Source: Escherichia coli (lineage in GTDB: Bacteria > Pseudomonadota > Gammaproteobacteria > Enterobacterales > Enterobacteriaceae). Taken from it: 64,000 nt of DNA. The DNA is taken from NCBI RefSeq assembly GCF_013315695.1, contig NZ_CP054353.1. One strand, 5' to 3'. The notes under the pieces were generated by a model. That model had not been told where the DNA came from. It saw only the letters and a program-made list of their open reading frames with translations, and made no database searches. Made by a program: the position numbers and the translations under genes. The stretch's first letter is position 1, and each line of letters opens with the position of its first letter. Positions 10,963-48,576 of this stretch are shown one piece after another.

Positions 10963-13838
<2,876 letters not shown>

Positions 13839-13853
13839 GGTAATGACTCCAAC

Positions 13854-14357
13854 TTATTGATAGTGTTTTATGTTCAGATAATGCCCGATGACTTTGTCAT
13901 GCAGCTCCACCGATTTTGAGAACGACAGCGACTTCCGTCCCAGCCGTGCCAGGTGCTGCCTCAGATTCAGGTTATGCCGCTCAATTCGCTGCGTATATCG
14001 CTTGCTGATTACGTGCAGCTTTCCCTTCAGGCGGGATTCATACAGCGGCCAGCCATCCGTCATCCATATCACCACGTCAAAGGGTGACAGCAGGCTCATA
14101 AGACGCCCCAGCGTCGCCATAGTGCGTTCACCGAATACGTGCGCAACAACCGTCTTCCGGAGCCTGTCATACGCGTAAAACAGCCAGCGCTGGCGCGATT
14201 TAGCCCCGACATAGCCCCACTGTTCGTCCATTTCCGCGCAGACGATGACGTCACTGCCCGGCTGTATGCGCGAGGTTACCGACTGCGGCCTGAGTTTTTT
14301 AAGTGACGTAAAATCGTGTTGAGGCCAACGCCCATAATGCGGGCTGTTGCCCGGCAT
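13854..14357 (-). CDS. insB: IS1 InsB (expressed as an InsAB' fusion by -1 frameshift)
   Basis: 167 aa ORF overlapping the insA 3' end in the -1 frame; IS1 transposase core. Confidence 0.9.
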
Positions 14358-14551
14358 CCAACGCCATTCATGGCCATATCAATGATTTTCTGGTGCGTAC
14401 CGGGTTGAGAAGCGGTGTAAGTGAACTGCAGTTGCCATGTTTTACGGCAGTGAGAGCAGAGATAGCGCTGATGTCCGGCGGTGCTTTTGCCGTTACGCAC
14501 CACCCCGTCAGTAGCTGAACAGGAGGGACAGCTGATAGAAACAGAAGCCAC
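14276..14551 (-). CDS. insA: IS1 InsA
   Basis: 91 aa [43 protein letters not shown], matching IS1 InsA. Confidence 0.93.
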
Positions 14552-14606
14552 TGGAGCACCTCAAAAACACCATCATACACTAAATCAGTAAGTTGGCAGC
14601 ATCACC

Positions 14607-44054: not shown

Positions 44055-45506
44055 TTAGCACAACGGGCGTACTGCTTCGCGCATCCCTTTTTCGAGAATC
44101 GCATCCAGGTCATTAGCCACCTGCTCGACCAGACCAGGCACTTGCGTCAGGTCCTGCTTCCAGTGGTCTTTTTCTGCCAACACAATCGCTACCAGTTCCT
44201 GGGTACCTATAACACGGTCACGATGCTGACTCCAGAGTTGCTGATAACGTTCCAGCCAGTGAGCATCGTCCTGTACCGGATATGTTTCTCCATTACGCTC
44301 ACCGCGATAGAACGCAATCAATGCCGCTAATGCGAAAGTAAGGCGCGCCGGAAGTGTGCCGTTTGCCTTCTGCCCTGCCAGTAGCTGCGGCAGGATGCGG
44401 GTACGGAACTTGGTCATACCGTTGAGCGCGATAGACAGCAGCTGATGCTTGATGTACGGGTTACGGAAACGCCCGGTGACTGCACTGGCGAAAGACTCCA
44501 GTTCATCGCGAGGCAAATCCAGAACCGGAATAATTTCTTCGTAGATGGCTTTCTCAACGAATGCGCAAATTTCAGCATCGTTCATCGCTTCACCTACGGT
44601 ATCCAGCCCTGCCTGGAACGCCACCGGCACCAGCGCGGTGTGTGCACCGTTGAGTATTGCCACTTTGCGTTCTTTATACGGTTTAATATCGTCAACAATC
44701 AGCACGTTGAGCGGATATTTGTCCAGACGCAGTTCAGTCGCTAAGGATTTCGGCCCCTGAATCACAAACAGGTAAAAGTGTTCAGCGGTGTCGAGGAAAC
44801 CATCGTGATAACCCAGTTCTTCTTCCAGTTTAGCCACTTCATCACGCGGATAACCGGTAACGATACGGTCCACCAGCGTAGAACAGAAGCTGTTAGCCTG
44901 ATCCAGCCATTGAATAAATGCTTCTGGCAGTGCCCACTCTTGCGCGTAGCGCAGCACCAGTTCACGCAGTGCATCGCCGTTATAGTCGATCAGTTCACAT
45001 GGTATGATGATCCAACCTTTATCCTGCGCTCCGTTGAAATGGCTAAAACGTTCGAACAGCAGACGGGTCAGTTTTGCCGGATAACTTACCGCTGGCGCGT
45101 CATCGAATTTATCGCCCGCATGGTAGCTGATACCCGCTTCGGTGGTGTTAGAGAAAACAAAGCGCATTTCCGGGTTGTGCGCCAGTTTCAGGAATTCATC
45201 GTATTCACTGTAGACGCTGATTTCACGATTAACAGAGCGAATCAGACGCGCGTCGCTGACCGCTTCCCCCTTCTCGTTCAGACCACGGATAATGGTGGTG
45301 TACAGACCATCCTGCGTGCTCAGTGACGGCGGGAATGAAGTTTCAATCGGACGAACAACGACCACGCCAGAATTCAGATCGGTGTGCTCATTCAGGAGAT
45401 CGATTTGCCAGTCAACAAAGGCGCGCAGGAAGTTACCTTCACCAAACTGAATGATACGTTCTGGATACTGTGCACCGGGAAAATCGCGACGATTTAGTGT
45501 TTTCAC
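44055..45506 (-). CDS. uxaB: Altronate oxidoreductase (tagaturonate reductase)
   Basis: 483 aa mannitol-dehydrogenase-family [33 protein letters not shown]. Confidence 0.92.
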
Positions 45507-45733
45507 AATGGGTTCCCTTCTGATTAGTCATACAACCTGTTTGAATTGGTACGACAGGTTAGCAAACTTTAATACGCCGAACCCCTGTTTTGATCAACTC
45601 CTGATGATTAATGAGCAGTTTTATGAGAAAAGTGTGGCGCGGATCATGGTTTAATCGAGGAACTACGCCTTTTATTCGCTCAATAAAGTGGTAGAACACA
45701 TTCCATTTAAATCGCTGTGAATGAATAAAGATG

Positions 45734-47152
45734 TCAGACAACTTCCTCACCGTAACGCATAGTGCTGGTACGGTTGCGCCCATCTTTCTTCGAGCGATAC
45801 AGACATGTATCGGCTTCGACCATCAATTTATTAAAGTCATCGGTCAGCGTTCGGTACGATGCGCAACCACTACCGACGCCAATACTTACCGTGAGATAAA
45901 GCGTTTTTTGTTGCCAGGTGAACGGTTGCAGTTCAACGCCTTTACGGATTTTTTCCGCCATTAGCAGACCATCGACAGGATTCACCGATGGCACTGCAAC
46001 AGCAAATTCCTCGCCGCCCATTCGCGCCACCAGCCCCTTATCACCGACAATCTTCTGAATATGCTGGGCAAACACGCTTAACACTTTATCGCCACATTCA
46101 TGTCCATAGTTATCGTTAATGCTTTTGAAATAGTCGATATCAAGCAGCATGACAGTCAGATGTTGTGTCTGTTTCAGCGATGGACTTTTCAGCGCCTCAT
46201 AAAGACCGGACCGTGAGTAAACCTGAGTCAGAAAATCAAAGTCGGCTCGCAGCGCAACTTGCTTCATTAGCGAATTGATCGCTGCCACGCTAAAAGAAAC
46301 CATAATTGGGCATATCGCCATCGTGGCAATACCGAGACGTGCGGAGAACATTTCTGGAATGGAGAATGGCGAACCGACCGAGATATCAATCACCGAATTT
46401 GCCACCAGTACGATTTCCACCGCACCGGTGACAAAGGTCAACAGACATGTTACCTGCGGCGTATAGCGCACTGCACACCAGATTAATGCAGGCAGCGGGA
46501 ACGCCAGACTCCCCGCTCCGCCAATGACTACCGAGGCAATAACCGACACAATAAGCGCGATGGCGGGCATCATCTGTTCTGCTTTAAAGCGCGGCAGCAC
46601 TCCCGGAATAGCCAACGTCAGCATACAAGGCACGATCAACACGCCCGTTGAGAATTGCTCACTGAACCAGTCCGCAAGCAAAGGCCAGAAATCCAGACTA
46701 TCAATACTGACCGAACCAATCGCCCCGACAATAGCGCATAATAATGCGGCAATCAGACAGTAATTAAATAGCCGTAAGGCACTTACTGGCTCATACTTAT
46801 TTTTCCCCAAACGCTTATCCCGCACGACCAGTAAGGCGACGGTAACAATAAACATCATATTGGAGAAATTGATAGCCAGTGAAACCAGCCCCCATTCGGT
46901 GGTTATGGCATCATAAACCAGCATTGCCACATAACTGATCGCATAGTAATGCAGTCGATTAAGCCAGACATAGCGGGCAAACACCCCCGCCATTACGCCA
47001 TTCAGCGGCCAGAAAAGAGAAAGTTCGTGAACCAGCCGTAACTCTGCACCAATGAAATAGAACAGCGTGGTTAGCGCAAAAATAGCGATGCTATTACGTA
47101 GCAGATGACCTTCCAGGAACAAACGGAAAGTTGAAATGGGCTGTACATGCAT
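45734..47152 (-). CDS. dgcF: Diguanylate cyclase with N-terminal MASE1 membrane domain and GGDEF domain
   Basis: 472 aa; multiple TM helices then a GGDEF domain with an intact GGEEF motif (RMGGEEFAVAV). Confidence 0.85.
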   Translation of the reverse strand: MHVQPISTFRLFLEGHLLRNSIAIFALTTLFYFIGAELRLVHELSLFWPLNGVMAGVFARYVWLNRLHYYAISYVAMLVYDAITTEWGLVSLAINFSNMMFIVTVALLVVRDKRLGKNKYEPVSALRLFNYCLIAALLCAIVGAIGSVSIDSLDFWPLLADWFSEQFSTGVLIVPCMLTLAIPGVLPRFKAEQMMPAIALIVSVIASVVIGGAGSLAFPLPALIWCAVRYTPQVTCLLTFVTGAVEIVLVANSVIDISVGSPFSIPEMFSARLGIATMAICPIMVSFSVAAINSLMKQVALRADFDFLTQVYSRSGLYEALKSPSLKQTQHLTVMLLDIDYFKSINDNYGHECGDKVLSVFAQHIQKIVGDKGLVARMGGEEFAVAVPSVNPVDGLLMAEKIRKGVELQPFTWQQKTLYLTVSIGVGSGCASYRTLTDDFNKLMVEADTCLYRSKKDGRNRTSTMRYGEEVV

Positions 47153-47290
47153 TAATTATCTGTCCATACAATTGCGGATGGCAATTATCTCAACGTAATA
47201 AGTAAATTCTCATAAAGGATAGCATGTTCGCTGACAGCGGCGGCAAATAAAGATATCCTGGGAATGCTATTTTATCGTTTTCCGCAATTA

Positions 47291-47650
47291 TCATGGCTGA
47301 TTCATCTGTATAACCAACCAGTGATAGATTACCGCCACGATATAACGTTGTTGTTCTTCGCTTAACGAAACACCCTGCGGAATGTTATGCCACTTAGCCA
47401 GACAACCGCGACAACAGGTTGCAGTGGCGTGCTGAGCGATAAACACCGGATGCCCGCGCATGGGGGTTTGCTTACCGTCATTAGTCGGTAATGCCGGAGC
47501 AAGACGTTTAGCGACAAAATCTGCCGCATGTTGTTCAATGACTGGCGCGCCTTTCTCCAGACAATACTGACGCTCTTTCACACCCAAACGAAAGCGAGAG
47601 CGAAATTTTGAACGGGATAAACGCGCGAAGAGTGGATCGAGAGACTGCAT
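47291..47650 (-). CDS. yneG: YneG, DUF4186 protein
   Basis: 119 aa ORF immediately downstream of glsB, as in K-12. Confidence 0.8.
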   Translation of the reverse strand: MQSLDPLFARLSRSKFRSRFRLGVKERQYCLEKGAPVIEQHAADFVAKRLAPALPTNDGKQTPMRGHPVFIAQHATATCCRGCLAKWHNIPQGVSLSEEQQRYIVAVIYHWLVIQMNQP

Positions 47651-48576
47651 TAATAAACTGAACGCCCTAATTGTTTCGTCAATTGTTCAAGGACAGCAAT
47701 GCCCGCAAGCGAGTTACCGGCATCATCCAGTTCCGGGCTCCAGACTGCGATGGCCATTTCATGCGGAACAATCGCCACAATACCGCCACCAACGCCAGAT
47801 TTTGCCGGTAGTCCCACCCGCCAGGCAAACTCCCCCGCGTTCTGGTACATACCACTGGTCGCCATCAGCGCGTTAATTTGCCGCGCCTGCATTGGCGTCA
47901 CCACAGGTTCATCAATATGAATAGCTTTACCCTGATTAGCCAGAAAGACAAACGTCCGGGCCAGCTCTACACAGCTCATTTTCAGAGCGCAGTAATGAAA
48001 GTAGTTTTGCAGAACGGTTGTCACATCATGATGGAAATTGCCAAACGACTTCATCAGCCAGGCGATAGCCGCATTTCGCGCGGAGTGTTCAAATTCGGAA
48101 CGCGCTACCACCGTATCGTAGGAAATATCAGACACACCGCTTAAGCCGCGCACGACTTCCAGCATACGTTGCCGAGGAGCGCTTAATCGCCCTTGCAACA
48201 TATCGCAGACCACCAGCGCACCGGCATTAATAAACGGATTACGCGGAATACCCTGCTCCATTTCCAGTTGCACTAAAGAATTGAACGGTGATCCAGACGG
48301 ATCTTTGCCGACGCGTTGCCAGATTTCCTCTTCGGAGTAATGACGCATGGCGACAACGAGACTCAGCACTTTGGAAATAGACTGAATGGAAAAACGTTCT
48401 TGCGCGTCTCCGGCCTGAAAAAGCTGTCCGTCAACGGTACAGATAGCAATCCCCAATCGGGAACCGTCTACCGTAGCCAGCGCCGGAATATAATCCGCGA
48501 CTTTACCCTGACCAATGAGCGGCCGCACTTGCCGCAAGATGTTTTCTAAAATTGCATTATCCATGGCGACTGCCAC
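47650..48576 (-). CDS. glsB: Glutaminase 2
   Basis: 308 aa serine-dependent glutaminase family ORF. Confidence 0.9.

Follow-up and report, generated by a model that had tools for sequence, protein, structure and literature searches.

An intact, full-length dgcF (yneF) allele in Escherichia coli with a predicted MASE1-like membrane sensor domain

The dgcF locus and its genomic setting

We analyzed a 64,000-nucleotide stretch of Escherichia coli DNA (contig NZ_CP054353.1), hereafter the window. Its list of open reading frames places dgcF (yneF) at positions 45734-47152 on the minus strand, as a 472-aa frame with an ATG start. The gene is flanked by uxaB (44055-45506), yneG (47291-47650), and glsB (47650-48576), all on the minus strand, and the order uxaB-dgcF-yneG-glsB is the one annotated in K-12 MG1655 and in E. 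coli MSB1_4I. Synteny and near-identity to annotated dgcF both assign the frame to the E. coli DgcF/YneF orthologue group. A 1.8-kb query spanning the locus (window 45500-47300) matches MSB1_4I at 100% identity, and PGAP names the same 472-aa CDS in that strain a "sensor domain-containing diguanylate cyclase" (WP_016234359.1). The features discussed below are as follows.

45734..47152, minus strand: full-length coding sequence of dgcF (yneF), 472 aa plus stop (ORF list; equals CDS WP_016234359.1 in MSB1_4I; K-12-like synteny)
45770..46246, minus strand: GGDEF catalytic domain, residues 303-461 (PF00990, TIGR00254; PDB sequence matches)
46004..46018, minus strand: A-site motif GGEEF, residues 379-383 (regular expression on the translation; codons GGC GGC GAG GAA TTT)
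46034..46045, minus strand: slot expected for the I-site RxxD, residues 370-373, which reads GDKG (motif scan of the translation)
46247..47128, minus strand: N-terminal membrane sensor, residues ~9-302, predicted to be divergent MASE1-like with at least 8 transmembrane helices (profiles, hydropathy, AlphaFold2)
46720..47217: 498-bp segment deleted in K-12 and in 1,216 complete E. coli genomes (blastn against MG1655, junction sequences)
47153..47290, minus strand: yneG-dgcF intergenic region, 138 bp (consensus scan; sequence)

The protein closely resembles the full-length DgcF/YneF of EAEC O104:H4, EHEC O157:H7, UPEC CFT073, and Shigella flexneri S1698, which is encoded at the same locus with 98 to 100% DNA identity and shares the length of 472 aa, the GGEEF motif, and the lack of an I-site. 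Only a few substitutions separate the present allele from the commonest E. coli DgcF cluster: it carries Q4, L13, Q363, and C430 where that cluster has H, Q, R, and R, and none of these lies at a conserved position of the family.

Positions 24150-60527 of the window are collinear with the genome of MSB1_4I and 99.99% identical to it. A Shigella origin of the window was considered and is ruled out by its 99.99 to 100% identity to this E. coli strain. The left part of the window (positions 1-24200, the uidA, fumB, malX, and ydgA region) also matches MSB1_4I at 100%, about 90 kb away and on the opposite strand. The breakpoint of these displaced 24 kb lies at one edge of an IS2 copy (~24150). As judged from their sequences, this suggests that the two strains differ by an IS-bounded inversion.

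The window holds six IS copies: two of IS1, two of IS4, one of IS2, and one IS5-like. The first five occupy positions 13838-14606, 19995-21430, and 24241-33230, and between 24 and 33 kb they lie amid pieces of a fimbrial usher, an HTH protein, and an autotransporter. The IS5-like (ISKpn26-family) element lies at ~60527-61723, with a 326-aa transposase frame at 60674-61654 on the minus strand, and sits between the IIC and IIB genes of a cellobiose/lactose-type PTS operon, a site that is empty in MSB1_4I. The autoinducer-2 kinase gene lsrK (33454-35045) is split into two overlapping minus-strand frames (33454-34308 and 34263-35045) and is likewise marked as frameshifted in the MSB1_4I annotation, while the remaining lsr operon is intact.

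An earlier note on this DNA, made from the sequence alone, had described a genome in which many accessory functions are decaying. Locally this description holds, given the six IS copies, the frameshifted lsrK, and the gene fragments, but it does not extend to the genome, since the closest one, MSB1_4I, measures 5.28 Mb and has 5,314 annotated features. The IS-rich stretch at 24 to 33 kb was probably the source of that impression. Decay is limited to an IS-rich part of an E. coli genome of otherwise normal size (~5.3 Mb) and lends dgcF no particular importance.

The catalytic domain and the deletion in K-12

Residues 303-461 of the protein form a GGDEF domain that is recognized by both Pfam PF00990 (E=4.5e-41; 140.7 bits against a cut-off of 23.8, with profile positions 1-161 fully covered) and NCBIfam TIGR00254 (E=4.6e-38; 130.6 bits against a cut-off of 37.4). 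Sequence matches in the PDB, including WspR, PleD, DgcZ, and others, are limited to this part of the protein. The catalytic motifs and those binding metal and GTP are intact, namely, RMGGEEF at residue 377, DIDYFKSIND at 338, GHECGD at 350, and KKDGRN at 455, in agreement with a published table in which all catalytic residues of DgcF/YneF are conserved (Spurbeck 2012, PMC3484386). The ORF list, Pfam, the motifs, and the AlphaFold2 model described below thus confirm the earlier note's description of a 472-aa frame with an intact GGEEF motif and a complete membrane sensor.

The note had also proposed looking for an I-site upstream of GGEEF. With the I-site defined as RxxD five residues upstream of GG(D/E)EF, the search came back empty: RxxD occurs nowhere in the 472-aa protein, and the expected slot (residues 370-373) reads GDKG. 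DgcF accordingly falls outside the I-site class of product-inhibited diguanylate cyclases. Published descriptions likewise give DgcF no I-site (Richter 2014, PMC4287979), and the table of Spurbeck 2012 (PMC3484386) gives "GK" for it. The best-known relatives of the domain differ in this respect. The catalytic domains of PleD and WspR are homologous to that of DgcF (E~1e-20 to 1e-22) and share its active-site motifs, but both are soluble response regulators that the product inhibits through an RxxD I-site, whereas DgcF is membrane anchored and has GDKG in the slot.

The earlier note gave, without certainty, a shorter annotation for this gene in K-12. This was accurate: dgcF of K-12 MG1655 (b1522) is annotated with 315 aa from a TTG start, so that the K-12 orthologue is not of equal length, the one finding that the note thought would make the frame unremarkable. 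The 315 residues align without gaps to the C-terminal part of the present protein, with the substitutions E267Q, Q363R, C430R, and R434L. The cause of the difference is a 498-bp deletion. The uxaB-yneG interval is shorter by this amount in MG1655, and blastn returns two collinear blocks around a clean gap at window positions 46720-47217. The K-12 junction is blunt, and no microhomology was found there. The frame loses its first 433 nucleotides (codons 1-144 plus the initial base of codon 145), and a further 65 bp are missing in front of the ATG; gone with them are sensor helices 1 to 4 (half of the domain), the ribosome-binding region, and promoter-like sites. The window contains the 498-bp segment and thus carries the full-length rather than the K-12-type deleted allele.

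Could the two lengths simply reflect different start codons chosen on the same DNA? The K-12 CDS does begin with TTG, with 29 further in-frame codons open upstream, and Richter et al. (2014, PMC4287979) report that the K-12 start codon is misannotated. The same study, however, describes K-12 yneF as truncated at its 5' end by a deletion and not expressed. In its account, the full-size protein begins with a hydrophobic domain of some 300 aa, keeps its A-site intact, and lacks an I-site. Both the gap in the blastn alignment and the junction sequence itself reject start-codon choice as the explanation. Of 5,426 complete E. coli genomes, 1,216 contain a 40-mer that crosses the K-12 junction; with the genomes carrying the segment added, 5,412 of the 5,414 that have the locus are accounted for. 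We give an annotation artefact almost no credence. The K-12 form of dgcF is effectively a dead allele; when four transmembrane cyclases were cloned to serve as YfiN controls, K-12 DgcF was the only one that did not inhibit motility (PMC10127611).

We assessed the distribution of the two forms across all 5,426 complete E. coli genomes. Of these, 5,414 have the locus, at 98 to 100% identity, and 4,196 contain the 498-bp segment. A 121-bp junction query did not separate the alleles, and the 40-mer was used for this purpose. The polymorphism is essentially two-allelic (4,196 and 1,216 genomes, or 5,412 together). The identical junction in 1,216 genomes points to one deletion that was then passed down within a lineage. 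Alignment of orthologues, which the earlier note had suggested alongside that with K-12, showed that the proteins of E. fergusonii, Citrobacter, Enterobacter, and Lelliottia are 472 to 483 aa long and cover the whole N-terminal domain, in contrast to K-12, which lacks window positions 46720-47217. Their lengths speak against reading the 498 bp as a gain in the long form instead of a loss in K-12. The full-length majority within E. coli and the full-length orthologues in other genera indicate that full length is ancestral. The claim that retention of an intact c-di-GMP synthase is notable here does not stand, as the full-length form is both the ancestral state and that of 4,196 of the 5,426 genomes.

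Several exceptions to the common pattern were observed. In strain MLI104K2 all but the final 97 bp of the 498-bp segment are gone, evidence of a different and rarer deletion. Five matches to the locus are on records classed as plasmids. Two E. coli proteins (514 and 460 aa) contain 100% of the DgcF N-terminal domain at 97 to 98% identity, with HipA (PF07804) in place of GGDEF; they may be chimeric frames that arose through rearrangement within dgcF in some strains.

The membrane sensor domain and its relation to MASE1

The N-terminal 300 residues are hydrophobic. AlphaFold2 models the full-length protein with a pLDDT of 91.6 and a pTM of 0.86 (pLDDT 88.6 for the N-terminal domain alone) and places at least eight membrane helices in this region, the helices spanning residues 17-37, 49-60/67-84, 89-111, 122-151, 155-179, 191-210, 213-229, 232-251, and 265-304. 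The last of these (~265-304) is a single long, unbroken helix that leads straight into the GGDEF domain as a linker. A Foldseek search with the N-terminal model found no PDB structure resembling the membrane domain at E<=0.001. Motifs conserved in the sensor of the enterobacterial DgcF clade are FWPxN, WFSEQF, GGxG, and PALxWCA. By hydropathy and in the model, the domain has the architecture that characterizes MASE1, an integral membrane module of about 300 aa with about eight transmembrane helices, located N-terminal to a signaling output. The MASE1 proteins DgcE, PdeF, PdeA, and UhpB likewise have an N-terminal sensor of about 300 aa with at least eight transmembrane helices and short loops upstream of the output domain. 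DgcF differs from DgcE in that GGDEF follows the membrane domain directly, whereas PAS domains intervene in DgcE.

The earlier note had called this domain MASE1, a label that survives only in part. Direct membership in the Pfam family fails: PF05231, with a gathering score of 29.8 bits, gave no match at E<=10 to either the whole protein or its N-terminal 302 aa, and the only Pfam match to those 302 aa at E<=10 was a spurious one to SAYSvFN. The close orthologues of DgcF have no Pfam MASE1 match either. The profile performed as expected on positive controls, detecting K-12 UhpB, DgcE, PdeF, and PdeA at 60 to 240 bits. What stands is a remote homology, which emerges from distant relatives and from the comparison of profiles.

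An exhaustive phmmer search with DgcF residues 1-303 yielded 405 cluster representatives, of which 57 members were aligned. Many of these relatives are about 470 to 490 aa long and 25 to 40% identical to DgcF across the entire domain. PF05231 matches 43 of the 57 at E<=1; 25 of them reach E<=1e-4, the strongest at 3.2e-11, and the relatives that it matches align to DgcF over the whole domain with phmmer E values of 1e-15 to 1e-54. Their MASE1 alignments are collinear and nearly full length (profile positions ~4-297 of 299), although most of them score under the 29.8-bit gathering cut-off. Repeated matches to a second membrane-domain family were not seen among the 57; MASE9 matched a single member at E=0.014. 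Some distant relatives of the sensor are fused to hybrid histidine-kinase outputs (HisKA-HATPase-REC, in some cases followed by Hpt) instead of GGDEF, and the domain thus behaves as a portable module.

Comparison of the family with individual MASE1 proteins gave uneven results. An HMM of the family's N-terminal domain scores the MASE1 region of K-12 DgcE (residues 13-250) at 30.7 bits and PdeF at 4.6 bits, and UhpB and PdeA escape its detection; no reversed decoy of these proteins scores above 0 bits. In hhalign, an alignment of 27 N-terminal sequences matches DgcE residues 1-305 with 92% probability over 218 columns (E=6e-7). Two further hhalign queries, a profile of close orthologues only (Neff 2.3) and the 57-sequence profile, were run against a MAFFT alignment of the four K-12 MASE1 domains, where neither surpassed the reversed control (E=0.11 and 0.34). 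We attribute these negative runs to the poor, shallow reference alignment, since against DgcE alone the family profile does find a match, in HMMER as well as in hhalign.

These uneven results bear on whether the N terminus of DgcF instead represents a membrane-domain family of its own without kinship to MASE1, as Richter et al. (2014, PMC4287979) imply, with the weak MASE1 scores produced by a shared hydrophobic composition. The missing Pfam matches in DgcF and its close orthologues, the hhalign values against the four-sequence alignment, and the failure of the family HMM to find UhpB and PdeA would all be expected of an unrelated family. Composition alone, however, is preserved in the reversed decoys, which reach no positive score where DgcE reaches 30.7 bits. 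Nor would it readily produce repeated matches to MASE1 and to no other membrane family, collinear over nearly the whole profile, or a 92% probability across 218 columns. We therefore regard an unrelated family as unlikely and conclude, on the basis of sequence comparison, that the N terminus of DgcF is probably a divergent MASE1-like sensor whose homology is at the level of the superfamily and below the Pfam threshold. The profile-level similarity to the DgcE domain and the many relatives that match PF05231 tie the two together; the enterobacterial DgcF clade differs from the MASE1 proteins in lying beneath Pfam detection and in having its own conserved motifs. Whether it should be ranked as a distinct branch of MASE1, defined by those motifs and placed under the Pfam threshold, is a more tentative matter; we consider such a placement possible but doubtful.

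Expression, proposed mechanism, and significance

The intergenic region upstream of dgcF contains two sigma-70-like consensus matches (47213-47184 and 47184-47155), both located inside the K-12 deletion. The scan returned 6 sites where 3.1+/-2.1 were expected, which is weak evidence, as these are consensus matches only. The Shine-Dalgarno sequence (GGA) is weak and lies within the 65 bp lost in K-12, and a scan of the dgcF region revealed no terminator or strong promoter. In reporter fusions, transcription of full-length dgcF is weak and mainly RpoS dependent (Richter 2014, PMC4287979).

Functional data come from two other strains. The S. flexneri orthologue raises c-di-GMP as measured by LC-MS/MS and a GG-to-AA mutant does not; this DgcF also affects acid resistance, invasion, and plaque size (PMC11327459). 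Deletion of dgcF in CFT073 lowers biofilm formation on glycerol and adherence to bladder cells, and both are rescued by the heterologous cyclase WspR (PMC3484386).

The dgcF gene might be intact here yet silent, either cryptic or heading toward decay like its IS-riddled surroundings, in which case the open frame would say little about its use. Very weak, RpoS-dependent expression of the full-length gene in the published fusions (PMC4287979) would fit such a state, as would the weak Shine-Dalgarno sequence, the lack of a strong promoter or terminator in the scan, and the IS-dense window with a frameshifted lsrK 11 kb away. Against it, the frame and all near-invariant family residues that were checked are intact, and only 4 to 6 nonconserved positions differ from the major E. 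coli allele. Deleting the gene produces phenotypes in CFT073 and S. flexneri (PMC3484386, PMC11327459), and the 498-bp segment is kept in 4,196 genomes, mostly within an annotated diguanylate cyclase CDS, and in several genera, which argues for purifying selection. A silent gene is improbable on this evidence. We instead read the locus, with a probability of roughly 0.9, as an intact, ancestral E. coli dgcF (yneF) allele encoding an inner-membrane diguanylate cyclase.

A mechanism can be proposed from the domain composition. The GGDEF domain would condense two molecules of GTP into c-di-GMP, and the protein would work as a membrane-anchored homodimer in which the membrane domain sets the pairing of the GGDEF domains, or their catalytic geometry, through the linker helix. 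Because the I-site is missing, the enzyme would presumably escape feedback inhibition by its product. The MASE1 domains of DgcE and UhpB signal through membrane partner proteins. By analogy with these two, the input to DgcF is probably a partner protein in the membrane or the state of the membrane itself; a periplasmic ligand seems less likely because the loops are short.

The dgcF gene examined here is a known gene in its usual state, and its deletion in K-12 is already published (Richter et al. 2014, PMC4287979). Beyond correct annotation its importance is small, and the modest addition made here is the evidence, drawn from sequence profiles, that the DgcF sensor is probably a remote MASE1 relative. 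For work on the gene itself, K-12 serves poorly as a reference, because the single 498-bp loss-of-function deletion that it carries is shared by 22% of complete E. coli genomes, and 77% have the full gene. Studies of DgcF would be better based on a full-length allele such as the present one. In hypotheses about the input signal, the sensor can reasonably be handled as a remote relative of MASE1, and if it does form a divergent MASE1 branch, the partner-protein signaling of DgcE and UhpB would become a testable hypothesis for DgcF.
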